DNA of 64,000 nt from Cellvibrionales bacterium (GCA_041941365.1 JBGTQK010000001.1:190727-254726); one strand, 5' to 3'; positions 13,127 to 51,521 are shown, counted from the stretch's first letter. Notes: generated from the sequence alone by a model not told the origin. Made by a program: numbers and translations.

Positions 13127-13332
13127 ATTACGAGAAAGACAGTAATCTTGGAAAACAAGCCATAATAATGGTAAAAATATTTTCAAGAGATTGTCATCTA
13201 TACATATTTTTTTAACAAAACTGTCATACTTGGGCTTTATCTTTCCATCCACATTAATGGTTGTCTTATGCTAGTTGTAACATGGCTTAAAAGCGCCTTT
13301 GTGCAACGATAATCCTATGATGGAGGCTTCAA

Positions 13333-14070
13333 GTGAATCAGTTGGCCACACAAACAGAATTTGTTTCTATGCTTAAAGTTCTTATTGTTGATGATGAACC
13401 ACCCATTCGTGAAATGGTACGAATGGCGTTGGAGCTTGAAGGGTATCAATGTTATGAGGCAGGTTCAGCAAATGAAGCGCTTCCTATTATTGTTGATGAA
13501 CGTCCAGATCTTGTGATTCTTGACTGGATGATGCCAGAGGTCAGTGGTCTTGAATTGCTCAGACGTGTGAAGCGTGACGAGCAAATAAATGAAATTCCAG
13601 TGATTATGTTAACAGCCAAAACAGATGAACAAAATACGGTTTCTGGCCTCGATGCTGGTGCGGATGACTACATTCACAAACCGTTTAGACCCAGAGAATT
13701 AATTTCACGTGTTAGAGCAATCGTTAGGCGTAGCGGTAAACTGACTGATGATCAAATGCTCAGCGTGTCTGGTTTAGCTCTGGATCCAATGGCACACCGT
13801 GTCTTTATAGAAGACCGACCAATCTCGATTGGACCTACAGAGTTCAAATTACTTGAGTTTTTCATGAGCCATATCGAGAGAGCATATACGCGAAGCCAGC
13901 TACTGGATCATGTTTGGGGTAGTAATGTATATGTCGAAGAAAGGACTGTCGACGTGCATATCAGACGCTTGCGCAAAGCATTAAACCCTGATTTTGCTTC
14001 TATCAATTATGGCAATTATATCCAAACGGTAAGAGGGACAGGTTACCGTTTTTCTGACAGATTACTTTAA
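13333..14070 (+). CDS. phoB: phosphate regulon response regulator PhoB (OmpR family)
   Basis: Receiver domain (LIVDDE...DLVILDWMMP...TAK) plus a winged-helix output domain (VDVHIRRLRKAL...IQTVRGTGYRF). It lies immediately upstream of phoR. GTG 13333 is preceded by GGAGG (13322-13326). ATG 13372 is an alternative start. Confidence 0.9.
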   Translation: MNQLATQTEFVSMLKVLIVDDEPPIREMVRMALELEGYQCYEAGSANEALPIIVDERPDLVILDWMMPEVSGLELLRRVKRDEQINEIPVIMLTAKTDEQNTVSGLDAGADDYIHKPFRPRELISRVRAIVRRSGKLTDDQMLSVSGLALDPMAHRVFIEDRPISIGPTEFKLLEFFMSHIERAYTRSQLLDHVWGSNVYVEERTVDVHIRRLRKALNPDFASINYGNYIQTVRGTGYRFSDRLL

Positions 14071-14229
14071 TTTCCCAGATTACTCACTCGACTAATCACA
14101 TAATACTCTATAGACTAGATTTCTTAAGGAAAGAAGTCGGTTCAAGCGTGTCTTGAGCTTATTCTTTGAATCTAACATATAACAATTCATTAACGTTTAA
14201 CTTCCGGTTTTAACCTTCACTTGGATTAG

Positions 14230-15600
14230 ATGAATTCTCTTTTTAGGATCACAATCTTACGGCTCACTCTGGTATCTGGAATAGGTTTTCTCATTGGAGA
14301 CTTATTTGGAAAAGTGGCGTTGGGTGTGTTGGTAGCAGTAATGGGCTATCTGGTGGTTTTCTTGTTGAATTTTAGACGTTTTCAGTCATGGATGGACTCG
14401 GGTTTTACATCGGATAGATATAACCCAATGGCAATCAGTTACTGGTCGTCTATAAAACATCAAATTGAAAGGCGCTTTAAGCTTTTTGAAGATGAAAAAA
14501 TAGCGCTATATCAGGATGTCGAGTTTTTTAGAGATTCATTTCAAGCGTTAGATAGTGCAGTAGTTGTAGTAGATAGCAAGGGTTTAATTACCTGGGCAAA
14601 TCAGCAATCAATAAAATTGTTGGGTATTGATATACAGAAGGATAAAGACCGAGTATTGCTTAATTTATTAAGAGAGCCAACGTTTAAAAGTTATTTTCAG
14701 GAGAAAGATTTTTCTAAACTATTAAAAATTGATTCGCCACTTAGTGCAGATGTTAAGCTCGAAATTCAAATTAGTGAGTTTCGTGAAGGTTCTTCGTTAA
14801 TTTTTGCCAGAGACATTACTGAGCTCGTGCAGCTTGAAAATGTGAGGCGAGATTTTATCGCTAATGTTTCTCATGAGCTAAGAACACCTCTTACTGTTAT
14901 CAATGGTTATCTAGAGATGTTTAAAGATATGTTAGGCAGTGCAGAAGATGAAAATGCTGAATCAGTGGAAAAGGCTCAACCGGTGATTCCAGCAAACTTT
15001 AACCGAATCTTCGAGCAAATGCTTAGCCAGTCTCAGCGGATGGAAGGGATGGTAAATGACCTGTTATGGCTTTCCAGAATTGAGTCAATGCCGGCCCCTG
15101 CTCAGTTGGAAAAAGTTCCGGTAGAAAGTTTAATACGTGGCATTGTGCAGGATGCAGAAATCGCTGCCAAGAATAAGCAGTTCACTTTGGAGTTTGACTT
15201 GCCAGAGAATTCAGAGTTTGCTTTGCCTTTATGTATAGCGGGTAGTTATGAAGAGTTAAGAAGCGCATTTAATAATCTGGTTAATAATGCGGTCAAGTAT
15301 ACACAGGAAAATGCCGAGATTCAGATACGTTGCTTTCAGCAAGGTGATACATATCGAGTCGCTGTAAAAGATAATGGAGAAGGCTTTGATCCTGTGCATA
15401 TACCACGATTAACGGAACGTTTTTATCGTACAGATGAGAGTCGGAATTCAACCACAGGGGGTAGTGGTCTGGGTTTGGCGATTGTAAAGCATGTGCTTCA
15501 AAGGCATTCAGCAAATCTGGAGATAGAGACTGCAATAGGTAAAGGAAGCAAATTTACTTGTGTATTTCCGCTTGATAGATTGGTTCAAAAGGAAAATTGA
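14230..15600 (+). CDS. phoR: phosphate regulon sensor histidine kinase PhoR
   Basis: Two closely spaced N-terminal TM helices with almost no periplasmic loop, a PAS-like segment, H-box FIANVSHELRTPLT, N-box NLVNNAVKYT and G-boxes DNGEGF/GGSGLGLAIVK. Adjacent to phoB. Confidence 0.92.
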   Translation: MNSLFRITILRLTLVSGIGFLIGDLFGKVALGVLVAVMGYLVVFLLNFRRFQSWMDSGFTSDRYNPMAISYWSSIKHQIERRFKLFEDEKIALYQDVEFFRDSFQALDSAVVVVDSKGLITWANQQSIKLLGIDIQKDKDRVLLNLLREPTFKSYFQEKDFSKLLKIDSPLSADVKLEIQISEFREGSSLIFARDITELVQLENVRRDFIANVSHELRTPLTVINGYLEMFKDMLGSAEDENAESVEKAQPVIPANFNRIFEQMLSQSQRMEGMVNDLLWLSRIESMPAPAQLEKVPVESLIRGIVQDAEIAAKNKQFTLEFDLPENSEFALPLCIAGSYEELRSAFNNLVNNAVKYTQENAEIQIRCFQQGDTYRVAVKDNGEGFDPVHIPRLTERFYRTDESRNSTTGGSGLGLAIVKHVLQRHSANLEIETAIGKGSKFTCVFPLDRLVQKEN

Positions 15601-34289: not shown

Positions 34290-35255
34290 ATGTCAACGGT
34301 TTCTTCTATATCTTCCTCAACATCTGCACATAGTGATATTCAATGGCAGGCAGTTATCGATTCTGTAGCATCTGTCTTACTGGGTAAAGAACAACAGATC
34401 AAATTAGCATTGTGCTGCTTATTGGCCAGAGGACATTTGTTAATAGAAGATTTGCCTGGCATGGGGAAAACAACTTTATCTCATGCGCTTGGTGAAGTAT
34501 TGGGCCTCTCGTATCAACGTGTTCAATTTACTAGCGATATGTTGCCAGCAGACATTGTTGGTGCATCGATTTATGATAAAGAAACCGGTCAGTTTAAATT
34601 TATTAAAGGGCCAGTGTTTACACAGCTGTTGTTAGCAGATGAAATCAATCGTAGTACTCCTAAAACACAAAGTGCATTTCTTGAAGCAATGGAAGAAGGC
34701 CAGGTTTCAGTTGATGGCATAACACATCAGTTGCCTTCACCATTTTTTGTTATTGCTACCCAGAACCCGGTTAGTCAGTCAGGCACGTATCCATTACCCG
34801 AATCTCAGCTTGACCGTTTTTTGATGAGAATTCAATTGGGTTATCCTGATCCTGAAGCAGAAAAACAAATGCTGTTAAGAGCCCAGGTAAGAGGAAGTAG
34901 TATTGCCGAGAACAAACTGGAAGCAATCGTTAGTGCAGAAGAACTTGTGGTTGCACAAGCAGAAATCGATAATATAAAAGCCTCTACGGTTCTTATTGAG
35001 TATTTACAGCGGTTGGTTAATTTCACTCGTTCATCATCGGATTTTGCTTTTGGAATATCTCCACGAGGATCTTTAGCTATTTTACAAGCCGCTAAAGCCT
35101 GGGCATATTTAGCAAAACGTGATCATGTTATACCTGAAGACATCCAGTCTATACTGTCATCAGTTGTATCTCATCGTTTACCATTATCGAATGGTGTTAT
35201 CAGTAACAGTGATGCGCTTATTACACAAATGCTAAATGAAGTTAATGCTGTCTGA
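34290..35255 (+). CDS. MoxR-family AAA+ ATPase
   Basis: 321 aa. Walker A EDLPGMGKTT, Walker B LLADEINR, ATQNP and SPRG (sensor 2). First gene of a MoxR-DUF58-transglutaminase operon. Confidence 0.9.
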   Translation: MSTVSSISSSTSAHSDIQWQAVIDSVASVLLGKEQQIKLALCCLLARGHLLIEDLPGMGKTTLSHALGEVLGLSYQRVQFTSDMLPADIVGASIYDKETGQFKFIKGPVFTQLLLADEINRSTPKTQSAFLEAMEEGQVSVDGITHQLPSPFFVIATQNPVSQSGTYPLPESQLDRFLMRIQLGYPDPEAEKQMLLRAQVRGSSIAENKLEAIVSAEELVVAQAEIDNIKASTVLIEYLQRLVNFTRSSSDFAFGISPRGSLAILQAAKAWAYLAKRDHVIPEDIQSILSSVVSHRLPLSNGVISNSDALITQMLNEVNAV

Positions 35256-35281
35256 ATAAGTTAAGAAGGTAGCTTTTCTTA

Positions 35282-36394
35282 ATGCACGATATACCAGAAG
35301 ATCTCTATAAACAAGGTGCTCAGGAAAGGCGGCAGAAACGTCGAAACTGGTTGCTGACTCAATGGCATCAAAAACGTAGAGAATTTCTTAATAGAAGAAT
35401 ACCCGCAACTAACACGATAACACTTAATCAAAAAAATATATATATCTTCCCAAGTTATGCAGGACTGGGCTTCATTTTTGTTTTAATTCTTTTATTACTC
35501 GTAGCAATCAATTTCGAAAATAATTCGGTTTATGCGTTGACCTTTCTGGTATCAGGCATCCTAACAGTTTCTATATTGCATACTTTTTTTAACCTGGCTG
35601 GATTAAATTTACAGGGTTTTTCTGCCAAACCGACTTTTTCAGGAAGAGAAGCTGAATTTAAAGTTTTAATGTCATCATCCTCAGGAGATCATTTAGGTAT
35701 TGTCCTGAGCTGGCAAGCGCATTCTCAGGTTGTCGATATTGAGAAAAACCGACAACAAAAATTGGTTTTACCATTCCGCACAGGGCCAAGAGGATATTGC
35801 GTACCTGGTCGCCTAAAAATAGAAACAAGCTACCCATTGGGTTTGATTCGAGCATGGACCTGGGTAGATCTGGATATGAGTAGCATTGTTTACCCTTTTC
35901 CTGATGAAGAGACAGTGACAGATAAAGAGAAAAGCAAAAATAATGATGAAGGCACACAATATGTTATGGGAAATACGGATTTTTACGGCTTGAGAAGTTA
36001 TGTTCATGGCGATAGTGTAAAGTCTATTGCCTGGAAAAATTATGCTAAAAGAGATGTCCTTACGACTAAGGAGTTCGTTGACAGTGTAGATGAACAGTTT
36101 TGGCTCGACTGGGATAGTGTTACAGGTGATGTAGAACAGAGGCTTCAGAAATTAACACATCTGGTAATTCAAGCTGAGCTTAGTGGGCAAGAATATGGAC
36201 TAATATTGCCCAACAGTCATTTGCCTAACAATAGTATTCAGCCTGACAAGGGAGAGCATCATCTCCACCAGATATTATATGCTTTGGCCATTTATCAACT
36301 TCCATCAAAAATAAATATGAAAGTGGAAAATGCGCCTGGTTCTTCGCAAGAAAATACTTTATCAGCAACCGAGAGTATTCAGGGTAAAGTATAA
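35282..36394 (+). CDS. DUF58 domain protein (MoxR partner)
   Basis: 370 aa. Two N-terminal TM helices and the DUF58-type motif DFYGLRSYVHGDSVKSIAWKNYAK. Confidence 0.85.
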   Translation: MHDIPEDLYKQGAQERRQKRRNWLLTQWHQKRREFLNRRIPATNTITLNQKNIYIFPSYAGLGFIFVLILLLLVAINFENNSVYALTFLVSGILTVSILHTFFNLAGLNLQGFSAKPTFSGREAEFKVLMSSSSGDHLGIVLSWQAHSQVVDIEKNRQQKLVLPFRTGPRGYCVPGRLKIETSYPLGLIRAWTWVDLDMSSIVYPFPDEETVTDKEKSKNNDEGTQYVMGNTDFYGLRSYVHGDSVKSIAWKNYAKRDVLTTKEFVDSVDEQFWLDWDSVTGDVEQRLQKLTHLVIQAELSGQEYGLILPNSHLPNNSIQPDKGEHHLHQILYALAIYQLPSKINMKVENAPGSSQENTLSATESIQGKV

Positions 36395-36395
36395 G

Positions 36396-38435
36396 ATGGC
36401 TTTTTATCAGCAGATCCCTCGCCAAAGTATATTCTGGTTGCTCATCGCTCAAACGCTTGTGGTAATACCCCATTTACCACGATTAGGCATATGGATGACA
36501 GGATTCTGGGCGATTTGTATTATCTGGCGTATAGCAATGTACCGTGGTCAGGCATCTTACCCTAGCCAGTATTTAAAAATAACATTAATCATTGCTGGTA
36601 CTGTCGGTGTGCTGATTTCATTTGGAAATTTAGGTGGCCTGGATTTGGCTGTAGCACTTCTAATATTGGCTTTTTCGCTTAAATTGGTAGAAGCAAAAAC
36701 TCGACGAGATTTAAACATTATTTTTTATCTGGCCTTCTTCGTTGTAGGGACATCTTTTTTATTTTCACAGGCTCTCCCATTAGTATTATTTCAAATATTA
36801 AGTATAGTTGTTGTACTAACAGCGATGATTGCGACGCAACGAAGTTTATCTCAGCATTCTTTTTTTCAACCATTTAAAGTAGCAAGCAAGTTATTACTTC
36901 AAGCTATACCTTTAATGCTCTTACTCTTTATTGTGTTCCCCAGAATTGATCCGTTATGGGCTGTTCATGATGGTACGACTCAGGCTGGTACAGGTTTTAG
37001 CGATGAAATGGCGCCTGGTGATGTCGTTGATTTAATGCAATCAGCTGAGGTTGTTTTTCAGGTTGAGTTTAGAAATAATAAAACGATACCTGAAAATAGA
37101 AAGCTTTATTGGCGAGGGTTATCATTAAATCAATTTGATGGAAGAGCATGGCGTTATACACCATTAAATGATGAATACCTACAAAACCTGAATGATGGAG
37201 AAAAAAATACAAACAGCGAATGGGTTTATGGAGAGCCTATTAGTTATTCAGTCATTATGAGGCCCAGTAATCAACACTGGTTATTTGCATTACCAATTGC
37301 AGATATATCATTAATGCAAAACAGGAAATTGAATAAATTATATTCCGGGAGAGATCTTTCCTGGCGATCTAGTGAAAAGATAAATAGTATTATTCAATAC
37401 AACGTTGATTCCTATCTGAATTATCGTGTCGACCCTTACTTAAGTCATTACGAGAAGAGGTTTTTTACTCAGTTACCTGAAGGGTTTAATCCAAAAACAC
37501 TCGCGCTTGTCGAGCAAATAAAACAAGAGAATGATAAGGCACAAGATATCATAAAAGCGGTCATTAGTTATTTTTATAATAACCCTTTTACATATACTTT
37601 AAAGCCAGAAAAGCTGGGTCGTAATACAGTAGACGATTTTCTTTTTAATACACAAAAAGGTTATTGCGAACATTATTCTAACGCCTTTGTTTTTGCATTA
37701 CGTGCAGCTGGTATACCATCCAGAGTTGTTATTGGTTATCAGGGTGGGGAAATAAATCCTGCTAATAATATTTTAACTGTGAGACAAATGGATGCACATG
37801 CATGGGCAGAATATTGGATAGAAGGAAAAGGGTGGCAAAGGTATGACCCAACAACATTAGTGGCGCCTGATCGAATTGAGTATGGTATGAATAGTTTTGC
37901 TCTAAATCAAAGTGAGGAGCTTTCTTTATTTTCACCAATACTAATTAAAAATGTTAGTTTTATTAAATCAATCAGCAATCAATTTGACTCAATAAATTAT
38001 GCATGGAGGAAATGGCTGGTAGGTTTTGACGGGGATATTCAGTATAGCGTTTTAAAAGCATTGTTAGGCGAGGTAACATCTTTAAGAATTGCCACATTTA
38101 TGTTTTTTGTGATGAGTGGAGTATTATCGATAGTTGCAGTCCTATTGTATCGTCGTTTACAGCGTAAAAAATTGAGTCCTGAATTACAGCTTTATTATCG
38201 CTTTTGTAAAAAGTTATCAGAAAAAGGCTTTCAGAGAAGAAATCATGAGCCACCTCAGCGTTTTTATGAGCGGCTATCAAAAGCTGTCTCACCAAAGCTT
38301 TCAGAAAAAGCTGAGAAAATTACGCATCTATATCAGCAAATTGTCTATAACGAAGTGGATAAAAAGGGTAATTTGCAGCAGCTAAAACAGGAAATAAAAA
38401 AATTTCAGGTTTCCAAGGCAGACTTTATTCAATAA
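36396..38435 (+). CDS. transglutaminase-domain membrane protein (TgpA-like)
   Basis: About six N-terminal TM helices, then a transglutaminase core with Cys-His-Asp (GYCEHYSNAFVFALRAAGIPSRVV...MDAHAWAEYW...RYDPT) and a C-terminal TM plus tail. ATG 36396 lies 1 nt after the DUF58 stop, so I prefer it to the track start 36330, which overlaps the preceding gene. Confidence 0.88.
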   Translation: MAFYQQIPRQSIFWLLIAQTLVVIPHLPRLGIWMTGFWAICIIWRIAMYRGQASYPSQYLKITLIIAGTVGVLISFGNLGGLDLAVALLILAFSLKLVEAKTRRDLNIIFYLAFFVVGTSFLFSQALPLVLFQILSIVVVLTAMIATQRSLSQHSFFQPFKVASKLLLQAIPLMLLLFIVFPRIDPLWAVHDGTTQAGTGFSDEMAPGDVVDLMQSAEVVFQVEFRNNKTIPENRKLYWRGLSLNQFDGRAWRYTPLNDEYLQNLNDGEKNTNSEWVYGEPISYSVIMRPSNQHWLFALPIADISLMQNRKLNKLYSGRDLSWRSSEKINSIIQYNVDSYLNYRVDPYLSHYEKRFFTQLPEGFNPKTLALVEQIKQENDKAQDIIKAVISYFYNNPFTYTLKPEKLGRNTVDDFLFNTQKGYCEHYSNAFVFALRAAGIPSRVVIGYQGGEINPANNILTVRQMDAHAWAEYWIEGKGWQRYDPTTLVAPDRIEYGMNSFALNQSEELSLFSPILIKNVSFIKSISNQFDSINYAWRKWLVGFDGDIQYSVLKALLGEVTSLRIATFMFFVMSGVLSIVAVLLYRRLQRKKLSPELQLYYRFCKKLSEKGFQRRNHEPPQRFYERLSKAVSPKLSEKAEKITHLYQQIVYNEVDKKGNLQQLKQEIKKFQVSKADFIQ

Positions 38436-43131: not shown

Positions 43132-43797
43132 TTATTCATTGCTCATTGCATCACTAACCAGGCGTAAATAAAGCGCTGCATGCTCTGGAAAAGGTTGAAT
43201 AGACCCATCTTTAAAATTGATTCCTGCAAAGCGAAAATTTCTATCTGCGCTTGCTGCCCAATAACTACTGGCTTTGGTGTTAGGAAAAAGACAAGAGCAA
43301 ATTAAAGGACCAGGTTCAGGGTAACTTGGATCGACCAGTTTTTTGAGTTCGTCCACTGATGGAACACGCCAATTAGAAAGGCCACACCATTTTTCCTGAT
43401 TTGCTTTTTTTATATAATTATTCACATAGCAACCGCTGATACCTGCGCAACTACCTTCTTTAGCATTCAAAGCGCTATTTTGGTTGTTTATCCATGTATA
43501 TGTCCAGCCACCATAGTGAATACCTTCATGCAGGCTTTTATTTTCCCAGACCAGGCCAGTTTTCGGGTCTTTTACACATAACCATGGTCCATCTTTTTCA
43601 TCCACTGTATTCCCGTTAGATGATAGCTTTTGCCAGTCTTTATATTGTTCTCTTTCTAAAAAAGAACTTTTATTAAAAAGTGAAGGTAATTGCGTGAAAA
43701 GTATAACTGCAATAAAAAGTATAAATACAAAAGTGCTGGAGAGGAAATAAAAAGGTTTCATTACATATACTTTTTCATTTATTAATTTTCGGTCCAT
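43132..43797 (-). CDS. membrane-anchored DUF1566 (Lcl C-terminal-like) domain protein
   Basis: 221 aa. N-terminal anchor (FYFLSSTFVFILFIAVILF). Motifs GLVWENK...WTY and CGLSNWRVPSVDELKKLVD are typical of DUF1566. An alternative start at M13 (43761) would remove the 16-nt overlap with the upstream gene. Confidence 0.65.
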   Translation of the reverse strand: MDRKLINEKVYVMKPFYFLSSTFVFILFIAVILFTQLPSLFNKSSFLEREQYKDWQKLSSNGNTVDEKDGPWLCVKDPKTGLVWENKSLHEGIHYGGWTYTWINNQNSALNAKEGSCAGISGCYVNNYIKKANQEKWCGLSNWRVPSVDELKKLVDPSYPEPGPLICSCLFPNTKASSYWAASADRNFRFAGINFKDGSIQPFPEHAALYLRLVSDAMSNE

Positions 43798-45401
43798 TTA
43801 AGTGTTAATGGCCATAAATGGTAACTATGCCGCGTTTGTGCATGATCGAATGTAGCAACCCATATAAATGTTCCAGATTGAATAGGGGTATCAAAAGGTG
43901 AATCGCTATTGAGTGCTCTTGACATTTCCAGATTCCAGTAACCATTTTTCCATGTTCCAAATGCACCGACATTGCCTCGATCACCTTCGAAATTACCTTT
44001 ATGAATAATGCCCTCTATACGAGTACCGATTGGGATTCTTTTATCAAGATGGAAGTTGTAATTGTCGCCATCTGACCAGCGCATCCATGTTTTTATCGGT
44101 GGCTCATCTGCAGTCAGGCCCAGAGTTTTAGGTAGTCTTAATGGAGTAACAGTTTCAGCATAGCGGTCTTTAAAGTAATCATAATTATGGGCATAACCAC
44201 CACTAAGTGATGGATCGCTTGCATAACCGGCTGTATATCTTGGCGAGCATGAGAGTGGTAGCTTCTTTTGCCCGAAATAACTATCATCTGCTTGCTGAAG
44301 AGTATTGCTACGCACAGCTTTCCATTGCCATATATCTAACGTTTCATTAAAGCTTGTGTAATGGTATCCACGCTGGTGCCTTGGTTCCGGAGCATTGGCA
44401 ATGGAGTTGGCACCTAAATGGATACTGTGCAGAGCTGAAAATTTTGACGTATTAGACAGCATAACAGCGAATTTATCTTCATAGAATGTGCGTTCATCAT
44501 CATTTAAAAATCCATCACTTTCAACTCGCCATCCTTCTTTAGACTTAATTAATGGAAGGTGATTAATGCTTTTATCTTTGTCTGGCCAGCGAAAGGCAAG
44601 ATACAGCCGCTCAGAATCTTTTACAGCTCGCACTTCAACAGAAATTACTTTAGCTGTATTGCCATATCTTGTATTAATCATAATCGGTTGTGTGAGTTCC
44701 CATGCTTCGTCAGTAAGCATGCCATCAATGATTGGAGGAGAAGGGGCTTCTGCTACATAAAGTGTATTTCCAAACGTATTGAATAAAATCAAAAAAAATG
44801 GAAAAGCAACAGTTAATGCCAGGCAGGCATACCAGAGCTTTTTACTCTGATTTTTTGTTGTGAAAGTCACTATGCTGAGTAAATGTTTAACATGTTTGGC
44901 AGCTATTACACTAATAACATGCAGTAAGAAATAAAATGCGATTACCCACGAAAAAAACTGATGAACGTTGGCAAGCATTATAAAACTGGAGCTATGTTCC
45001 TGACTTAGAATAAATCCGCTGATACATTGTATCGCTAATAAGAATATCCCAAACCAGATAACAAATTTGTTTTGTTTGCTCTTGAAGGATTCATGGATAT
45101 TAAACAGTAAATATTTGAATCGGCCTGTGAAAACAATGTAAATCAGGTAAGCCAGTAAAAAGGTTCCAACTAATTTACCACTGGCAATATGCCAATCAAA
45201 AACTGTTCCTTGCAGTAAAGCCTTATCCCATAGTAAATCGATTTTATTGTTTATTTCTTGCTCCAGATTGCGATCTTTTGCAATCCGGTGCCCGGATAAA
45301 AAGCATATTACAACTGTTAGGACAATGCTCCAGTGAAAAGCAATAACAGCCAATCCGTTTTTTGGCGTCAATGTTTCAGATTTTGTATTACTTTTGATCA
45401 C
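43782..45401 (-). CDS. cytochrome b561-type membrane domain fused to a DOMON-like haem-binding (ethylbenzene dehydrogenase gamma / EB_dh) domain
   Basis: 539 aa. It has five predicted TM helices with conserved His residues (AFHWSIV, SGHRI, DWHIA, NVHQFF, LLHVISV). The soluble domain reads IDGMLTDEAWE...VEVRAVKDSERLYLAFRWPDKDKS...DIWQWKAVRSN...GYWNLEMSRAL. Family assignment is by motif recognition only. Confidence 0.65.
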   Translation of the reverse strand: MIKSNTKSETLTPKNGLAVIAFHWSIVLTVVICFLSGHRIAKDRNLEQEINNKIDLLWDKALLQGTVFDWHIASGKLVGTFLLAYLIYIVFTGRFKYLLFNIHESFKSKQNKFVIWFGIFLLAIQCISGFILSQEHSSSFIMLANVHQFFSWVIAFYFLLHVISVIAAKHVKHLLSIVTFTTKNQSKKLWYACLALTVAFPFFLILFNTFGNTLYVAEAPSPPIIDGMLTDEAWELTQPIMINTRYGNTAKVISVEVRAVKDSERLYLAFRWPDKDKSINHLPLIKSKEGWRVESDGFLNDDERTFYEDKFAVMLSNTSKFSALHSIHLGANSIANAPEPRHQRGYHYTSFNETLDIWQWKAVRSNTLQQADDSYFGQKKLPLSCSPRYTAGYASDPSLSGGYAHNYDYFKDRYAETVTPLRLPKTLGLTADEPPIKTWMRWSDGDNYNFHLDKRIPIGTRIEGIIHKGNFEGDRGNVGAFGTWKNGYWNLEMSRALNSDSPFDTPIQSGTFIWVATFDHAQTRHSYHLWPLTLKWTEN

Positions 45402-45483
45402 TATTTTTTACGCGTAAATAATCTTATGACACTTTTGTTTCAGTATTGAAAAAAAGTATGTGAAGTTTCCATGATGACAGTTC

Positions 45484-45517
45484 TTTTCATATAAATTTCA
45501 TATTCGAGTAGTATAAA
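45484..45517 (+). promoter_or_regulatory. candidate PhoB-dependent promoter: Pho-box-like direct repeat plus -10
   Basis: TTTTCAT-ATAA-ATTTCAT (45484-45501) is two 7-mers on an 11-bp period with an A/T spacer. It matches 14 of 18 positions of the E. coli consensus CTGTCATAWAWCTGTCAY. TATAAA (45512-45517) lies exactly 10 nt downstream, the canonical Pho-promoter geometry, and about 140 nt upstream of the phosphoesterase gene. Confidence 0.35.
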
Positions 45518-45654
45518 AAATGGCGGTAGAAAAGGCTATTCATATACCAACTTCAACAATGAATTCAAAGTTATAACAGTGGATTCTGATTGACACATTA
45601 CACCGAAATTAACTTTTAAAGCCCAAGCTTAATCGATAGGAATATTACAATCAT

Positions 45655-48600
45655 ATGTACAAGCATTCCGTTAAATTATTTTCTCATTTTTTATTTGCTC
45701 TTCTTATTTCTTCTCAAGTAAATGCTTATACAGATTTGTACCGATTAGTCTGGACGGATGATCCGTCCTCTACGATGACTATTGGCTGGCGTCAGGGCAG
45801 TGGCAGTTTTACCGAAGTAAAGTATCGTGTGAAAGGAAGCCTGGCTATCTGGCAATCGAATACCAGCCTTACTCAATACAATTATCAAAATACTGTGAAT
45901 GGTACTTCAGATGTTTTGAATAATTCATTTGTCACCTTAACAGGATTATCTGCTAATACAGATTACGAGTTTACAATATGTGATAGTGATGGCTGTTCTG
46001 ATCGATATATGTGGTTTAGAACATCACCCAATACAGCTCAAACCGTTACCTTTGTTGCTGGTGGTGACTCACGTCGCGATACTTCAACCAATTACGCCAA
46101 AAATGATCAGGCTCGTACAGACGGTTTTAAACTGGTTTCCAAATTGCGACCTACCTTTGTTTTGTTTAGTGGCGACTTCATGAATGACGGAACATTCGAA
46201 GAATGGTTGATCTGGCTGGATGAATGGCAGTTGACTCAAAGTAGTGATGGACGTATGTACCCAATTGTTCCAACGCATGGAAATCACGAAAATGATGCAC
46301 TGGATATGGTTCAGCAGGTGTTTAATGTACAAGGTGTTGTAGGTAATTCAGCATACGGAACTTATAACGCATTGAGCTTCGGAGGAGATTTACTGAGGAT
46401 CTGGACACTCAATACAGAACTGGAGCCAGGAATAGGTTATAGCGCATTTCAAAATCAGAATTCTACAGCCTGGAATGAACAAGCAACATGGTTAGGCAAT
46501 GATCTTGCAGCAAATAGTAACGTACAATGGAAAATTGCTAATTATCACCGCCCGTTGAGACCTCATACATCTGGAAAATCAGAAGGTAACTTACGTTACA
46601 GTGCCTGGGCTCCTCTGTTCGATACTCATGATGTTGATCTGGCAATTGAGTCAGACTCTCATATGGTCAAATACACAGCGCCTGTTAATGCTTCAAGTGG
46701 TGCTGGATCTGATGAAGGTTTTATAGAAGCCGATCATGCCAATAGTGAGCACGGTACTGTATTCATAGGTGAGGGTAGCTGGGGTGCACCAAAACGACCA
46801 ATCGATGACGATAAAGACTGGACAATAATCAGCAACTCATTCTGGCAATTCAAGCATATTACGGTTTCTCCAAGTAATCTTGAGGTTCGTACTGTACGCT
46901 TTGAAAATAGTTCATATCCAAACGGTGTTGATGTGGATGTGGCTGCTCTAACACAACTTGAACAGGATAATGATCCAGCAGCATTACCTACAGGTTTGGA
47001 CTTGTGGTTACCTTTTGAAGGAGATATTCCTCTAACACTCCCTTATAGTGATACATATACAGTTAAAGCCGATGCTAATGAAGTTCCTGTTGATGATAAT
47101 AATGACCCGCAAGCACCAGAGAATGCGCTGTTTTTTACCAATTTTACTGGCGCAGTTGTTGACGGAGCAACAGGGTCGATAGTAACAAGCTATGGCGATA
47201 TTACTCAATTCAGTCAGGCATGTACCGATGCTCCTTGGTATATTTATTCAGGTTCATCAGGTTCGAAAGCGAGTGCCAATGGTTATGCGCCAGGTTCAAC
47301 ACCCGAAAATTGCAGTAACTGGTTATTCTTGCCTCCACAGGACTTGAGTGGCACAGATGCTATTACATTGACATTTGATTCTGATTATAACTTTAACGGA
47401 CCTGATCTGGAGCTTGTATATTCCAGTGATTATGATCCCTCGGTAAATGCGGATCCAGCCAGTGCGACCTGGACCACACTAAGCTGGGATATACCATCCA
47501 CTGGTGGCTACACAGTTGAATCGTCAGGACCAGTTGTTATCTTTGCAGCAGATATTCCGCTGGCTGAGCAAGCTAATGTCACAATCGCTTATCACTACAC
47601 ATCAAATGGTCGTGAAGCAGGCGATGGAAAAATCTGGGAAGTCGATAACATTGCGATCGTAGATGGTGAGCAAGTCGGGGAAGGTGATACCGAAACTATC
47701 ATGTTCTTTACGGACTTTACTGGAGCCGTTGCTGATGGAGTGACTGGTTCTATAGCGACAAGCTATGGTGATATCACGCAATATACTGAAACCTGTTCAG
47801 ATGAATCCTGGTACATCTATCAAAGTTCTAAAGTGAGTGCCAATACGTATTCTCCAGGCGCTACACCAGAAAATTGTAGTCTGTGGCTATTTGTACCCGC
47901 ACAGGATCTCAGTGCTCTTGATGCGATGACCTTAACATTTGATTCTGACTATAACTTTGATGGTCCCGAATTAGAGCTGGTTTATTCAAGCGATTATGAC
48001 CCTCAGGTTAATGCGGATCCTTCAACGGCAAACTGGACTACATTAAATTGGACAAAACCAGCAACAGGTGGTTATACCGTTGCGCCATCTGGGCCTGTAG
48101 TGATTCAGGCGACAGATGTTCCAGTTGCAGAACGCGGTAATGTGACCATTGCCTATCATTACACATCGAATGGCCGTGAAGCAGGTGATGGACGTATCTG
48201 GGAAGTTGATAATATAAAAATTATTGAAGGTGAGGAAGCGCCAGCCCCGGTTGTTGACGATACAGTGCCGGCTAAACCGACAGGTACATTACGTGTTGCT
48301 TCCTTTAACGTTTTACTTGCCAATCGCGGAGCTGGTTCTGAGCCAAGTGATGTTTATGATCCTTCTATAGATCCTGACGCATTAAAAGATGATTTGGTTG
48401 GTGGCAATGATTCTCAAGCGCAAGGCGTAGCTGAAATTATCCAACGAATTAACCCGGATATCATACTACTCAATGAATTTGATTGGGATGCCACAGACGT
48501 TGCTGTCAACTCATTCAGAACAGAATATCTTGAAGTAGCACAGGCAGCTGATACAACGGCAGTTACCTATCCTTATTACTATGTGGCGATATCTAACACA

Positions 48601-49836
48601 GGTGTTCAGCCAGAAAGTGAAGGTGAAGCAGATTGTGATTTCAATGACTCTGGTGTGGGTTGTGGTGTAGCAGGATCGGCAAATGATAACCCTGAAGATG
48701 CATACGGATTTGGCTATTATCCTGGTGCGTTTGGTATGGTTATGTTATCCAAATATCCAATCGATAGTGCAAACGTTAGAACCTTCAGAAAATTCTTATG
48801 GAAGGATATGCCTGCAAATGTTATTCCGGCAGGATGGTATGCTTCTGATGAATTGGATATTTTCCGTGTATCGTCAAAGAGTCACTGGGATATTCCTGTT
48901 AATGTAAACGGTGAAACCGTTCATATTCTCGGTAGTCATCCAACACCACCAGTATTTGACGGCACAGAAGATCGCAATGGTCGACGCAACCATGACGAAA
49001 TACGACTTTGGGAAAATTATGTCAGCGAAACAGGCAGTAACTGTTTTCTGTATGACGACGATAATACAGCTGGTTGTTTAGGTTATGGAAAACGCTTTGT
49101 CGTTGTCGGTGACCAGAATGCAGACCCATCTAACGGAGATAGTTTTGGGTCAGCTATCCTGCAGCTCTTGAATAATCCGTTTATTGATGGAAGTTTCACT
49201 CAAACTGCTAGTGGAGGAGAAGGTCGTACATCCGGGTTAGCTGCAACTGCTGACTTTGGATTACGTGCAGACTATGTTGTACCGGGTAAAGCTGGTCTGA
49301 ACATCCGGATGGATAGCTGTGATAGTGCAGACCCTGGTTTATCTTGTGGTATTTACTGGCCTAGAGTGGGTGATCCTAAACGGGATCTAACAGGAAGCTG
49401 TAGTGATTCAGGGCCAAGCTGTGCGTCTTCGGATCATCGTCTGGTATGGCTTGATCTGGAGATCGTAGCTGACCAGGATAATGATGAAATTCCTGATGAT
49501 ATTGATAATTGTTTGGCTATCAGTAATAACGACCAGCAAGATCTTGACAAAGATGGTCTGGGTACTGTTTGTGATACAGACGATGATAATGACCAAATGG
49601 ATGATGCGTGGGAAGCACTCTATGGCTTTAGTTCTGCCGATCCAAGTGATGCCCTATTAGATACCGATGGAGATGGCGTGATCAATCGCGATGAATTTTT
49701 AAATGATACCAACCCGCTGGTAAATGATGAAGCTGAAGTTCCTTTATTGCCTGTATTAGCGCAATGGTTATTGGGATTAAGCCTGATTTTAGTAGCACGT
49801 CGTTATCTAAGAAAAATTGTTAGTAATGTTCTTTAA
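45655..49836 (+). CDS. secreted multidomain phosphoesterase: FN3-like N-domain + calcineurin-like metallophosphatase, 2 x unassigned 190-aa module, endonuclease/exonuclease/phosphatase (EEP) domain, TSP3-like Ca-binding repeats and a PEP-CTERM-like tail
   Basis: 1393 aa. Signal peptide (aa 1-24). Metallophosphatase motifs GGDSRRD, SGDFMNDG, HGNHEN, YHRPLRPH and SDSHM. EEP motifs LRVASFNVLL, ILLNEFD, VVGDQNADP and SSDHRLVWLDLEI. Asp-rich repeats DQDNDEIPDDIDNC/DLDKDGLGTVCDTDDDND/DTDGDGVINRDEF. Tail VPLLPVLAQWLLGLSLILVARRYLRK. Confidence 0.85.
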   Translation: MYKHSVKLFSHFLFALLISSQVNAYTDLYRLVWTDDPSSTMTIGWRQGSGSFTEVKYRVKGSLAIWQSNTSLTQYNYQNTVNGTSDVLNNSFVTLTGLSANTDYEFTICDSDGCSDRYMWFRTSPNTAQTVTFVAGGDSRRDTSTNYAKNDQARTDGFKLVSKLRPTFVLFSGDFMNDGTFEEWLIWLDEWQLTQSSDGRMYPIVPTHGNHENDALDMVQQVFNVQGVVGNSAYGTYNALSFGGDLLRIWTLNTELEPGIGYSAFQNQNSTAWNEQATWLGNDLAANSNVQWKIANYHRPLRPHTSGKSEGNLRYSAWAPLFDTHDVDLAIESDSHMVKYTAPVNASSGAGSDEGFIEADHANSEHGTVFIGEGSWGAPKRPIDDDKDWTIISNSFWQFKHITVSPSNLEVRTVRFENSSYPNGVDVDVAALTQLEQDNDPAALPTGLDLWLPFEGDIPLTLPYSDTYTVKADANEVPVDDNNDPQAPENALFFTNFTGAVVDGATGSIVTSYGDITQFSQACTDAPWYIYSGSSGSKASANGYAPGSTPENCSNWLFLPPQDLSGTDAITLTFDSDYNFNGPDLELVYSSDYDPSVNADPASATWTTLSWDIPSTGGYTVESSGPVVIFAADIPLAEQANVTIAYHYTSNGREAGDGKIWEVDNIAIVDGEQVGEGDTETIMFFTDFTGAVADGVTGSIATSYGDITQYTETCSDESWYIYQSSKVSANTYSPGATPENCSLWLFVPAQDLSALDAMTLTFDSDYNFDGPELELVYSSDYDPQVNADPSTANWTTLNWTKPATGGYTVAPSGPVVIQATDVPVAERGNVTIAYHYTSNGREAGDGRIWEVDNIKIIEGEEAPAPVVDDTVPAKPTGTLRVASFNVLLANRGAGSEPSDVYDPSIDPDALKDDLVGGNDSQAQGVAEIIQRINPDIILLNEFDWDATDVAVNSFRTEYLEVAQAADTTAVTYPYYYVAISNTGVQPESEGEADCDFNDSGVGCGVAGSANDNPEDAYGFGYYPGAFGMVMLSKYPIDSANVRTFRKFLWKDMPANVIPAGWYASDELDIFRVSSKSHWDIPVNVNGETVHILGSHPTPPVFDGTEDRNGRRNHDEIRLWENYVSETGSNCFLYDDDNTAGCLGYGKRFVVVGDQNADPSNGDSFGSAILQLLNNPFIDGSFTQTASGGEGRTSGLAATADFGLRADYVVPGKAGLNIRMDSCDSADPGLSCGIYWPRVGDPKRDLTGSCSDSGPSCASSDHRLVWLDLEIVADQDNDEIPDDIDNCLAISNNDQQDLDKDGLGTVCDTDDDNDQMDDAWEALYGFSSADPSDALLDTDGDGVINRDEFLNDTNPLVNDEAEVPLLPVLAQWLLGLSLILVARRYLRKIVSNVL
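47131..48233 (+). repeat. intragenic tandem duplication (period 573 nt = 191 aa) inside the 1393-aa gene
   Basis: Copy 1 starts FFTNFTGAVVDGATGSIVTSYGDITQF (nt 47131) and copy 2 starts FFTDFTGAVADGVTGSIATSYGDITQY (nt 47704). Both end ...VTIAYHYTSNGREAGDG(K/R)IWEVDNI. The copies align over their whole length at both protein and DNA level. Confidence 0.9.
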
Positions 49837-49871
49837 TAAATCCCCTAAAATTTAATCTGGAGTATGTAGTT

Positions 49872-50603
49872 ATGAAATTGAAGTCTCTATTTGCTGGAAT
49901 GCTGGTAGGCGGTATCGCTTTACAAGCAAACTCGGCACTTATTATTTCTGAAGTTGTTGATGGCAGTTTATCTGGCGGTTTACCAAAATTCGTTGAATTA
50001 ACGAATACTGGTACAACATCTATTGATTTATCTGCTTATAGTATTGGTAACCTCAATAATGGTGGTACTGACTTGGGTGGTAGCAGTGGTTCTACTCTGT
50101 TGTCAGGTATTTTGGCTGCTGGCGATTCATACGTGATTAGCTATGAAAACAGCGACTCAGCCGGAAACAGCACGTTTTTTGATGTGTATGGTTTTGATGC
50201 TGATAACCTTTCACAAGGTTCTTTTATTAATGGTGATGACGTTATTGCATTGTTCTCTGGTTTGGCAGTAGATGGTTCTGGTGATGATTCAGCTGCTCCA
50301 AACGTACTTGTTGATGTTTACGGTGTTGTTGGTGTTAATGGTGACGGTGAAGTTTGGGACTATACAGATGGTTACTCATTCCGTAACTTTAACGTTATAA
50401 GCGCAACAACAACGTTTGATTCAAGTGAGTGGACGTTTGGTGGTTTGAACAGTTTAGCAGGAGCTGACGCTGCTGCTGAGACGGCGCTATTGCTTTCTTT
50501 AACAACACCAGGTACACACTCTTTTGCAGCTGTTCCAGTTCCAGGTGCTGCGTTCCTTTTCGGTTCTGCGCTTATTGGTCTTTTAGTTGCAAGACGTAAG
50601 TAA
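49872..50603 (+). CDS. secreted lamin-tail-domain (LTD) protein with VPLPA/PEP-CTERM-type sorting tail
   Basis: 243 aa. Signal peptide, then the LTD-type opening ALIISEVVDGSLSGGLPKFVELTNTGTTSIDLSAYSIGN. The C-terminus VPVPGAAFLFGSALIGLLVARRK has the motif + TM + basic end of a PEP-CTERM tail. It starts 35 nt after the 1393-aa gene. Confidence 0.8.
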   Translation: MKLKSLFAGMLVGGIALQANSALIISEVVDGSLSGGLPKFVELTNTGTTSIDLSAYSIGNLNNGGTDLGGSSGSTLLSGILAAGDSYVISYENSDSAGNSTFFDVYGFDADNLSQGSFINGDDVIALFSGLAVDGSGDDSAAPNVLVDVYGVVGVNGDGEVWDYTDGYSFRNFNVISATTTFDSSEWTFGGLNSLAGADAAAETALLLSLTTPGTHSFAAVPVPGAAFLFGSALIGLLVARRK

Positions 50604-50662
50604 TTATACAAAAACAATATATAAAAATAGCGAATAAAAATTTGCTTGTATTGATAAGAATA

Positions 50663-50695
50663 AAAAGCCCAGCCATTGGTTGGGCTTTTTTTTTT
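50663..50695. terminator. bidirectional rho-independent terminator between convergent genes
   Basis: AAAAAGCCCAGCC-ATT-GGTTGGGCTTTTTTTTTT: a 9-bp stem with one G-U pair, flanked by an A-tract and a 10-T run. It lies between the stop at 50603 (+) and the stop at 50715 (-). Confidence 0.8.
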
Positions 50696-50714
50696 GCTTA
50701 TTGATTATATAAGT

Positions 50715-51521
50715 TTAAATACTAGCCCCGCAGTGTTTACAGTGCATAGCATCTAACTCATGGCCAGATCTACCGCAATTACCGCAGGTTCTCTGGTCTC
50801 TTTCCATACGCATTTCATTGGCAATTTCAGCAGTAAAAATACCAGTGGGAACAGCGATGATAGAGTATCCTAACACCATTACCATGCTCGCGAGAAACTT
50901 GCCTAAAGGAGTGTTGGGAGAGATATCGCCATAACCGACAGTTGTAATGGTAACGATTGTCCAGTAAATGCTTTGAGGCATACTAGTGAATCCGTTTTTA
51001 GCACCTTCAACCAAATACATTAATGCACCAAAAACAACTGCGAAAATAATGACAACAAACAGGAAGATTAATATTTTGCGGCGAGAAGCCCATAATGCAC
51101 GAATCAATAAATTTGCTTCGGTTGAATAACGAAAGAGTTTGAATATTCTAAATAATCGCAATACGCGTAGTAAACGCACGACAAGAAAATATTGTGTACC
51201 GGCGAAAAAAATGGCCAAATAGCTTGGTAAAAATGAGATGAGATCAATAATGCCATAAAAACTTCGTGCATAACGAACAGGATGAGGTGCGCTATACAAC
51301 CTTAGAAAATACTCAACGGTAAATAATATGGTAAATCCCCACTCAATATTCCAAAAGAGTTTTTCATATCTGACATGAAAAATATTGATTGAGTCGATTA
51401 CAACGAGTAGTACGCTAGACACAATAGCAATTAACAGGAAAATATCAAAAGTTCTCCCGGCTCTTGTTTCAGTGCCAAAAATAATAGCGTTAATTGTGTT
51501 TCGCAGTTTGGAACGTGACAC
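50715..51521 (-). CDS. voltage-gated-type (6TM) potassium channel with a C-terminal zinc-ribbon
   Basis: 268 aa. S4-like Arg repeat (VVRLLRVLRLFRIFKLFR), K+ selectivity filter TTVGYGD and a C-terminal CGNCG...H...CKHCG motif. Confidence 0.88.
   Translation of the reverse strand: MSRSKLRNTINAIIFGTETRAGRTFDIFLLIAIVSSVLLVVIDSINIFHVRYEKLFWNIEWGFTILFTVEYFLRLYSAPHPVRYARSFYGIIDLISFLPSYLAIFFAGTQYFLVVRLLRVLRLFRIFKLFRYSTEANLLIRALWASRRKILIFLFVVIIFAVVFGALMYLVEGAKNGFTSMPQSIYWTIVTITTVGYGDISPNTPLGKFLASMVMVLGYSIIAVPTGIFTAEIANEMRMERDQRTCGNCGRSGHELDAMHCKHCGASI

Follow-up and report, generated by a model that had tools for sequence, protein, structure and literature searches.

We analysed a 64,000-nucleotide stretch of DNA (64 kb; hereafter the window) from a marine gammaproteobacterium of the Cellvibrionales (GCA_041941365.1 JBGTQK010000001.1:190727-254726), with emphasis on a four-gene cassette located at 43132-50700, whose core is formed by a giant multidomain enzyme, named here P1, and a small secreted protein, P2. 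The open reading frame (ORF) of P1 is located at 45655-49836 on the plus strand and codes for 1393 amino acids (aa), and that of P2, at 49872-50603 on the same strand, codes for 243 aa. The 35-nt gap between them contains a GGAG ribosome-binding site, and the P1-P2 transcription unit is closed by an intrinsic terminator on the plus strand (50662-50700), made of a 13-bp stem, 6 of whose pairs are GC, at 50662-50690 and of a T-run. These two ORFs, their spacing and a bicistronic unit ended by a strong terminator had been proposed in an earlier note made from the sequence alone, and all were found again here. Neither ORF showed any sign of chance or pseudogene status, both being intact and conserved, with complete catalytic motifs. 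On the minus strand, upstream of P1, lie a cytochrome b/EB_dh gene and an Lcl_C gene, giving the cassette the order Lcl_C and cytochrome b/EB_dh in one direction and, divergently, the giant enzyme followed by one or more small PEP-CTERM proteins.

From its domain matches, P1 is predicted to be a Sec-exported enzyme joining a purple acid phosphatase (PAP)-fold binuclear metallophosphoesterase to a Mg-type EEP phosphodiesterase/nuclease domain. A Sec signal peptide, read off the sequence, occupies residues 1-24 (45655-45726, plus strand), with cleavage between SQVNA and YTD. It is followed by the first catalytic half, two choice-of-anchor J (CoA-J) beta-sandwich modules, the second catalytic half, Ca-binding repeats and a tripartite tail. 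The cleavable signal peptide, the PAP-type N-domain, the metallophosphatase core and the EEP domain of the earlier note are all borne out; both catalytic domains were recovered above the Pfam cutoffs by profile search and every catalytic motif quoted there is invariant, in 62 family members for the first half and 54 for the second. Neither catalytic domain matched any PDB chain in sequence searches, and a search with the family profile reached only the thrombospondin type-3 (TSP3) repeats and, marginally, the PAP N-domain; the catalytic domains were therefore placed with AlphaFold2 (AF2) models and Foldseek.

The PAP-fold half (45742-47064, plus strand) consists of an FN3-like N-domain, residues 30-118, matching Pur_ac_phosph_N (PF16656, 36.1 bits, cutoff 30), and of a binuclear metallophosphoesterase domain, residues ~125-470, in which residues 161-336 match Metallophos (PF00149, 31.8 bits, cutoff 21.5). 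The AF2 model of residues 25-470, built from the family alignment, has a pLDDT of 93.4, and its Foldseek matches include the plant PAPs 1xzw, 4dhl and 1kbp (E = 1e-22 to 1e-20, TM 0.64-0.69, 16-18% identity), with a superposition that covers the FN3-like as well as the catalytic domain. Five motifs occur in PAP order and spacing, and D138, R140, D174, N210, H211, H298, H304, D334 and H336 are invariant in the 62 relatives. The metal ligands of kidney-bean PAP are D, D, Y, N, H, H and H, where Y is the Tyr of GDxxY that binds Fe(III). P1 has the FN3-like domain and the metallophosphoesterase fold of these enzymes without this seven-ligand set: the position of the Tyr ligand is N177 in P1 (across the 62 members D in 28, N in 22, S in 6 and Y in 1), and the first His of GHxH is replaced by the invariant Asp D334, a mapping of ligands that is based on motif order and spacing and not on a residue-level structural superposition. 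The N-terminal half of P1 has the PAP fold, but its predicted metal site departs from the canonical one and is richer in carboxylates, which sets it apart from canonical PAPs.

The EEP domain (48280-49479, plus strand, residues 876-1275) belongs to a subtype recognised by an SHPTPP motif, after which it is named here. Residues 917-1218 match Exo_endo_phos (PF03372) with 78 bits for a cutoff of 24.5, and the catalytic Asn, Glu, Asp-x-Asn, Asp and Asp-His are present, with N885, E941, H1095, D1153, N1155, D1206, D1260 and H1261 invariant in 54 relatives. The AF2 model of residues 870-1282, again from the family alignment (pLDDT 89.0), gave a generic fold match in Foldseek: the best hit is 4ruw, an uncharacterised EEP protein (E = 9e-12), followed by nocturnin, sphingomyelinases, TDP2 and AP endonucleases. 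A fold match of this kind does not by itself fix the substrate.

Between the two catalytic halves, the CoA-J modules, of ~185 aa each, lie at 47119-47670 (plus strand, residues 489-672; NF038128 35.6 bits when scanned alone, cutoff 30) and 47695-48240 (plus strand, residues 681-862). They had been described as two copies of an unassigned 190-aa module; the repeat is real, with 72% aa and 71.6% DNA identity between the copies, but the module is a known one. Both copies align to module 1 of the orthologs, whose second module is divergent, and copy 2 is a lineage-specific tandem duplicate of copy 1 that replaced this divergent module; an ancestral two-copy arrangement was rejected on the same comparison. 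The Asp-rich, TSP3/EF-hand-like Ca-binding repeats at 49480-49710 (plus strand, residues 1276-1352) proved genuine as well: the single P1 sequence reaches only 21 bits with the Pfam TSP_3 model (cutoff 25), but the family profile matches COMP (E = 6e-17) and thrombospondin-2 (E = 2e-14). The same stretch also matches the MtsC region of an NCBIfam model.

A homolog search in 5.8 billion proteins yielded 271 relatives, from which 120 clusters were listed (loci of relatives are given below by L numbers and proteins by four-digit P numbers). The fusion of PAP-N/Metallophos with Exo_endo_phos was found in ~60 of these 120 clusters, in Pseudomonadales metagenome-assembled genomes (MAGs), Agarivorans, Agaribacterium, Corallincola, Reinekea, Pontiella, Desulfosarcina and Candidatus Uabimicrobium, under annotations limited to 'choice-of-anchor J domain-containing' or 'EEP family' protein. 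Close full-length orthologs, 55-70% identical, come nearly all from marine metagenomes, and among reference genomes a close copy was seen only in an Oleiphilaceae MAG, whose EEP domain is 63% identical. In the literature searched we found no paper on the PAP+EEP fusion or on a bacterial PAP/DOMON link, an absence which is not a proof. The earlier view that the whole architecture is uncharacterised therefore stands as far as we found, but the protein is no one-off: the family is recurrent and common in databases, with each of its parts coming from a known class. The GC content of the enzyme gene is 0.43, against 0.38 for its flanks, and the chromosomal neighbourhood of the cassette differs from genome to genome, which together hint at lateral mobility, with no recognisable mobility genes.

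The SHPTPP EEP subtype itself is much wider, with at least 545 loci in the reference-genome collection. It occurs as a standalone form of ~400-460 aa in Actinomycetota and Alteromonadales, in combination with CoA-J and PKD domains, and in fusions with other phosphatases. A Sulfuricurvum MAG carries PhoX, PKD, EEP and a lamin-tail domain (LTD) in one chain, followed by an Endonuclease_1 gene (L056:7301-11695). Colwellia has an EEP + PhoA protein followed by an 828-aa Endonuclease_1-containing protein (L085:9713-12214), and Nostoc has EEP, phytase-like, beta-propeller phytase and RTX domains together (L016:9836-15457), in proteins of 1800-3100 aa in many Nostocales. Endonuclease_1 genes adjoin SHPTPP EEP members in L002, L006/7, L056, L059, L085, L100 and L102, which belong to several unrelated lineages; the L003 ortholog is flanked by PhoD and 5'-nucleotidase genes, and a polyphosphate kinase gene lies nearby in L006. 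The fusions of the EEP domain to phosphomonoesterases of unrelated folds, with the Endonuclease_1, PhoD and 5'-nucleotidase neighbours, give the strongest support for a diesterase acting together with a monoesterase, and for nucleic acid as the likely substrate.

Phosphorus might instead be drawn from other substrates, if the EEP domain attacked non-nucleic phosphodiesters or inositol and lipid phosphates (phospholipid or sphingolipid head groups, inositol phosphates, teichoic-acid-like polymers). Sphingomyelinases and nocturnin rank level with nucleases in the fold search, the Nostoc relatives fuse the same EEP subtype to phytase and phytase-like domains, and the CoA-J modules and the CBM4/9-like partner proteins described below hint at glycan or particle binding. 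We nevertheless regard this as unlikely, because Endonuclease_1 repeatedly neighbours the EEP subtype in several unrelated lineages and the LTD goes with known nucleases (PMC6085458, PMC8289736).

The two divergent gene pairs share a promoter region of 253 bp (45402-45654) which contains two Pho-box-like, 11-bp-phased heptamer pairs, one at 45426-45443 on the minus strand (CTGAAACAAAAGTGTCAT) and one at 45484-45501 on the plus strand (TTTTCATATAAATTTCAT). Both match 10 of 14 positions, the same quality as the site at the window's own phoB promoter, and only six Pho-box-like hits were found in all the intergenic DNA of the window (6.4 kb), two of them in the 253-bp promoter and one at phoB. The phoB-phoR pair is located 30 kb upstream of the cassette (region 13127-15600, with the genes at 13333-15600 from a by-eye reading of translations), and its promoter, with the Pho-box-like TTTTAACAAAACTGTCAT at 13210 and a perfect TTGTCAT nearby, provides an internal calibration. 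Comparable or better sites precede family genes in L002, L003, L006, L093, L025, L037 and L079, reaching 11/14 in the last three. Control of the divergent promoter by PhoB is plausible from these repeats.

A main role in remodelling the cell's own matrix, by trimming of extracellular DNA in biofilms, adhesion or dispersal, was weighed against nutrient acquisition. PEP-CTERM proteins are classically tied to exopolysaccharide and floc formation, and adhesin-like modules (TSP3, CoA-J, LTD, Lcl_C) are present in the cassette. ExeM and Xds, two exported EEP nucleases, also influence biofilms (PMC6085458, PMC6746945). The PAP half, the PhoX, PhoA and phytase fusions, the PhoD and 5'-nucleotidase neighbours and the Pho-box-like sites point rather to phosphorus acquisition, and the cassette contains no exopolysaccharide genes, so that we consider a mainly matrix-directed role very doubtful.

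The C-terminal tail of P1 (VPLLPVLAQWLLGLSLILVARRYLRK + IVSNVL; 49738-49836, plus strand) shows by eye the tripartite layout of VPLLPVLAQW motif, LLGLSLILVA helix and RRYLRK basic cluster, with six residues, IVSNVL, between this cluster and the stop. It matched no sorting-signal model at E <= 10, including IPTL-CTERM TIGR04174 and PEP-CTERM. The tails of the orthologs ([DE][DE]IPFLPxWAL...) score 20.8 (P0003, which passes), 20.2, 19.0, 18.7, 17.2 and 17.1 with TIGR04174, for a cutoff of 20.5, and the motif-helix-basic layout is kept in all close orthologs. On these scores the P1 ortholog group carries an IPTL-CTERM-like signal, of which the P1 copy is sub-threshold. Scanned by itself, the P2 tail, residues 220-243 (VPVPGAAFLFGSALIGLLVARRK), exceeds the cutoffs of the PEP-CTERM models (TIGR02595 17.5, cutoff 16; PF07589 20.8, cutoff 20.7); within full-length P2 the score is 14.9. 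The idea that both tails are PEP-CTERM-like probably holds for P2 but not for P1, which matches no model and whose orthologs are IPTL-CTERM-like. Over the family, C-termini differ, in line with the name 'choice-of-anchor': they are of the IP(F)LPxWAL type in the close clade, dockerin-like and Cys-rich in many members, and GlyGly-CTERM-like in Agarivorans and Corallincola, the GlyGly-like tails being confined to distant members such as P0038 and P0053; the Reinekea and Uabimicrobium proteins have no tail.

An exosortase-family gene lies within the cassette in six of the nine close-clade loci (L002, L003, L006/7, L093, L094 and L095). It codes for a mini-exosortase of 167-185 aa, with 38-57 bits on TIGR04178 (cutoff 23) in the three that were scanned. 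The best named model is XrtM, with 86-113 bits, below its cutoff of 125, followed by XrtH or XrtX, XrtH being also under its cutoff. XrtH, by its NCBI name, is the IPTL-CTERM-specific enzyme. Where the genomic surroundings of the nearest orthologs are available, which is the case for two of them, the enzyme, the small protein, the mini-exosortase and a partner gene follow each other on one strand. The partner, a multi-transmembrane (TM) protein of ~200-220 aa, always pairs with the XrtM-like mini-exosortase, often overlapping it (L002:6277-6939, L006:6476-7093, L003:15035-15637, L093:12205-12816, L094:6965-7624); it had no Pfam or NCBIfam match whatsoever and may be an accessory subunit of the exosortase. 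With tblastn, neither an exosortase nor this partner, including pseudogene remnants downstream of P2, was found within the 64-kb window. A linked exosortase is likewise missing at L004 and L005, and a search of the literature on IPTL-CTERM, XrtH and XrtM turned up nothing relevant.

These observations bear on whether both tails are, in this genome, plain C-terminal membrane anchors, with the proteins facing the periplasm from the inner membrane and no exosortase processing. The missing exosortase and partner in the window, the two relatives that also lack a linked one, and the P1 tail, with its IVSNVL extension and no match to any sorting model, speak for such anchors, as does the precedent of ExeM, which stays membrane-associated and for whose activity processing is dispensable (PMC6085458). 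The layout kept in every close ortholog, the XrtM-like exosortase in the operon or cassette of 6/9 close relatives and the P2 tail that passes the PEP-CTERM cutoffs when scanned alone speak against them, and we judge plain anchoring to be the less probable option, with a small but real share of the likelihood.

P2 (49872-50603, plus strand) consists of a signal peptide, an LTD at residues 18-129 (PF00932, 49.7 bits, cutoff 34.3) and the putative PEP-CTERM tail, in agreement with what had been read for its first two elements. The LTD partner of L005 shares 62% identity with P2, which belongs to a stand-alone family of signal peptide-LTD-PEP-CTERM proteins with at least 188 members, 50-69% identical, that include Planctomycetota and Verrucomicrobiota; in Mucisphaera, a gene of this family sits among outer-membrane biogenesis genes, with no adjacent phosphoesterase. 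The slot directly after the giant enzyme always holds small secreted proteins (205-243 aa) with VPLPA/PEP-CTERM tails, 6 of 10 tested passing TIGR03370 and 4 of 10 TIGR02595, yet it is filled across genomes by at least four unrelated proteins. These are of the LTD type (window, L005, L100), a CBM4/9-like 'YGWEDG' type (L003, L004, L006, L093, L094), a divergent type (L002) and a DNRLRE-like 'FFNVEG' type (L005), with further types in L100 and L103. The 'FFNVEG' type also shares one reading frame with the enzyme, namely in P0019, P0020, P0022 and P0025 (42-43% identity), where the VPxP/hydrophobic/Arg-rich tail is internal and is followed by a signal-peptide-like segment and the ~200-aa 'FFNVEG' domain; the arrangement reflects either a true fusion of the partner or the loss or readthrough of a stop codon. 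L100:2-7428 contains a distant, dockerin-tailed member with a divergent Endonuclease_1 gene upstream and, downstream, two small PEP-CTERM proteins that include a full-length LTD protein. A dockerin-type enzyme end next to small proteins anchored through PEP-CTERM suggests that tethering follows a cohesin/dockerin-like scheme.

The LTD appears, on this distribution, to be one among several interchangeable anchored beta-sandwich partners. That it turns up repeatedly beside divergent members of the family suggests a genuine functional connection, though not an origin from the enzyme. The earlier note had taken P1 for an ExeM-like enzyme whose LTD had split off. In this model an ExeM/Xds/NucH-type nuclease ancestor had its LTD turned into a separate co-transcribed subunit and gained the metallophosphatase later, ExeM itself being composed of LTD, OB-fold, EEP and sorting tail (PMC6085458). 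The LTD of P2 does match the N-terminal part of the ExeM model NF033680 (39.8 bits, LTD part only, model positions 15-174, for a cutoff of 1300 bits), an LTD occurs in-chain with the SHPTPP EEP domain in L056 and L024, and the LTD protein recurs downstream of the enzyme in the window, L005 and L100. P1 gave no match to NF033680 at E <= 0.1, and neither an in-chain LTD (PF00932) nor a YhcR-like OB-fold region, essential to ExeM (PMC6085458), was found in it with Pfam and NCBIfam. An LTD within the chain is absent from all 120 listed homologs, non-LTD proteins fill the slot in most orthologous loci, and the stand-alone family of P2 spans phyla and contexts. The claim is not supported by these findings, and we hold such an origin to be very improbable.

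The most faithfully conserved partner of the enzyme, as far as gene order indicates, is the divergent pair of cytochrome b/EB_dh and Lcl_C genes, which the earlier note had overlooked. The first (43782-45401, minus strand) codes for a 539-aa fusion of a cytochrome b of the Ni_hydr_CYTB type (PF01292, 43.8 bits) with a DOMON-like haem domain, EB_dh (PF09459, 130 bits), and has 5 predicted TM helices. The membrane histidines H23, H71, H147 and H161 are invariant in 10 sequences, which implies two haems, and the protein is a putative transmembrane electron conduit with an extracytoplasmic EB_dh domain. The second (43132-43797, minus strand) codes for a 221-aa Lcl_C (DUF1566) protein with an N-terminal membrane anchor (PF07603, 70.3 bits). 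The two genes overlap by 16 nt and are therefore probably translationally coupled, and Lcl_C adjoins the EB_dh gene in all nine close-clade loci. A cytochrome/EB_dh gene adjoins 14 of the ~19 large CoA-J-bearing members, including distant ones from Corallincola, Agaribacterium and an Alcanivorax MAG and an EEP-less Vibrio protein (L088), and none of ~65 EEP-only or 75 PAP-only loci. That the cytochrome is a general companion of the PAP domain, as the Vibrio locus had suggested, was refuted by the 0/75 PAP-only loci of the metagenome scan. The association is limited to the large enzymes with CoA-J modules, mostly from gammaproteobacteria. The idea that the PAP centre is activated by redox chemistry was downgraded to a speculative lead; redox upkeep of the enzyme metal centre and, by analogy, reductive mobilisation of Fe(III)-bound phosphorus would be the two leads for the role of the cytochrome.

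Taking these data together, the cassette may be a Pho-inducible, envelope-tethered scavenger of organic phosphate, a reading of the sequence to which we give slightly better than an even chance. Under phosphate limitation, PhoB, encoded in the same window, would activate the shared divergent promoter. P1 would be exported and kept tethered to the cell envelope by its tail, as the IPTL-CTERM-like tails of the orthologs and the XrtM-like mini-exosortase in the operon of relatives lead us to infer. Its EEP domain would cut phosphodiesters, most likely in extracellular nucleic acid, and its PAP-like domain would strip the resulting terminal phosphate, delivering inorganic phosphate at the cell surface; the co-transcribed LTD protein might serve for substrate capture or as a scaffold.

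Several observations weigh against this phosphate-scavenging role. The PAP-like site is non-canonical (Tyr to Asn/Asp, one His to Asp), and the fold match of the EEP domain is generic, so that nucleic acid as its substrate comes from the neighbouring genes only. The P1 tail fails every sorting model and carries six extra C-terminal residues, and no exosortase or partner lies within the window. The promoter matches reach just 10/14, with no Pho-box-like site upstream of L004, L005 and L088. Members of the LTD partner family are also found with no phosphoesterase nearby, and the strictly linked cytochrome b/EB_dh and Lcl_C pair is left unexplained by the model. The surface-tethered diesterase plus monoesterase for DNA or organic phosphate that had been imagined at the outset is retained in part, as the best supported of the explanations weighed: the intact catalytic domains, the EEP fusions to PhoX, PhoA and phytase, the neighbour genes, the Pho-box-like repeats and the exosortase-family gene in the cassette of six of nine close relatives are in its favour, but the non-canonical PAP site and the sub-threshold P1 tail are not.

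A bolder version of the scavenging model, which we find distinctly unlikely, would make the cassette a self-contained, horizontally portable surface organelle for phosphorus harvesting, in which the mini-exosortase and its multi-TM partner install two classes of signals, the small protein docks the enzyme and the cytochrome exports electrons. One dedicated exosortase would then handle an IPTL-like signal on the enzyme and a VPLPA/PEP-CTERM signal on the small beta-sandwich protein, and this protein (LTD, CBM-like or DNRLRE-like) would dock at the Ca-binding repeats of the enzyme or capture substrate; in distant members dockerin-type repeats take the place of the C-terminal Ca-binding repeats. 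The electrons would maintain a redox-active PAP-like metal centre or reductively free phosphate and DNA from Fe(III) minerals, and in the latter case the system would be a bacterial counterpart of the plant CYBDOM ferric reductases in phosphate deficiency.

Two other regions of the window were noted. Directly downstream of the cassette, 50715-51521 on the minus strand codes for a K+ channel-like ion-transport protein with a Cys-rich, CxxC...CxxC zinc-ribbon-like tail (CGNCGRSGHELDAMHCKHCGASI), unusual for the channel family. At 34290-38435 on the plus strand, a three-gene cluster apparently unrelated to the cassette combines a MoxR-type AAA ATPase with a DUF58 protein and with a transglutaminase membrane protein resembling TgpA.

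Among the major reservoirs of phosphorus in the sea are its dissolved organic forms and extracellular DNA, and the known bacterial toolkit for their use (PhoA, PhoX, PhoD, PafA, nucleases, nucleotidases) is made of separate enzymes. In the PAP+EEP family, a single tethered chain would act both as diesterase and as monoesterase, and the recurrent EEP-monoesterase fusions suggest a widespread design for surface phosphate capture without loss of intermediates to diffusion. The most novel aspects are the conserved cytochrome b/EB_dh and Lcl_C pair and the dedicated mini-exosortase of the relatives. The locus offers a handle on the roles of small XrtM/XrtH-type exosortases and IPTL-like signals, on the purpose of stand-alone LTD and other PEP-CTERM mini-proteins, and on the reason for the tight genetic linkage between a transmembrane protein of cytochrome b/DOMON-like type and a hydrolase outside the cytoplasm.

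Compared with known systems, P1 resembles plant-type PAPs in its FN3-like domain, binuclear fold, motif order and motif spacing, but these have a chromophoric Tyr ligand, whereas P1 has none and its PAP-like domain is embedded in a 1393-aa multidomain chain. PhoD shows that PAP-related enzymes can serve bacterial phosphorus scavenging (PMC4223295), although the PAP-like domain of P1 is not of the PhoD family by Pfam. Eukaryotic CYBDOM proteins, ferric reductases made of cytochrome b561 and DOMON domains, are active in the phosphate-deficiency response of plants (PMC10784552, PMC10784544). They share with the cassette cytochrome the layout of a two-haem TM cytochrome b with an extracytoplasmic DOMON/EB_dh-type haem domain, as well as the link to phosphate limitation; their cytochrome is a eukaryotic b561 and that of the cassette of the Ni_hydr_CYTB type, so that the likeness is an analogy and not a claim of homology. 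With exosortase/PEP-CTERM-type systems (XrtH/IPTL-CTERM, XrtM, VPLPA-CTERM) the tripartite tails are in common, but the cassettes of close relatives mix two signal classes in one operon and their mini-exosortases stay below the XrtM cutoff.

The known systems close to P1 also include ExeM of Shewanella oneidensis and Xds of Vibrio cholerae, which, like P1, are exported, envelope-associated EEP enzymes with a motif-helix-basic tail and an LTD association, and which have a role in the use of extracellular DNA (PMC6085458, PMC6746945). ExeM carries LTD, OB-folds, EEP and a sorting tail of the GlyGly-CTERM type, with a YhcR/OB-fold region that is essential (PMC6085458). It has its LTD in-chain with two OB-folds, a GlyGly-CTERM used with rhombosortase and no phosphomonoesterase domain, whereas in the cassette the LTD is on a separate PEP-CTERM protein, a PAP fold is fused in, and the tail is putatively of the exosortase type, IPTL-like in the orthologs; the P1 tail is not of the GlyGly-CTERM type of ExeM and Xds. 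Finally, the phosphatase EddA and the DNase EddB of Pseudomonas aeruginosa are made under low phosphate and allow DNA to be used as a phosphorus source (PMC3572637). Although they are separate secreted proteins, with a phosphatase of another family and without surface-sorting tails, LTD partner or linked cytochrome, this phosphatase and EEP-type DNase follow the same two-step logic as that proposed for P1, of which they would be a two-protein analogue.

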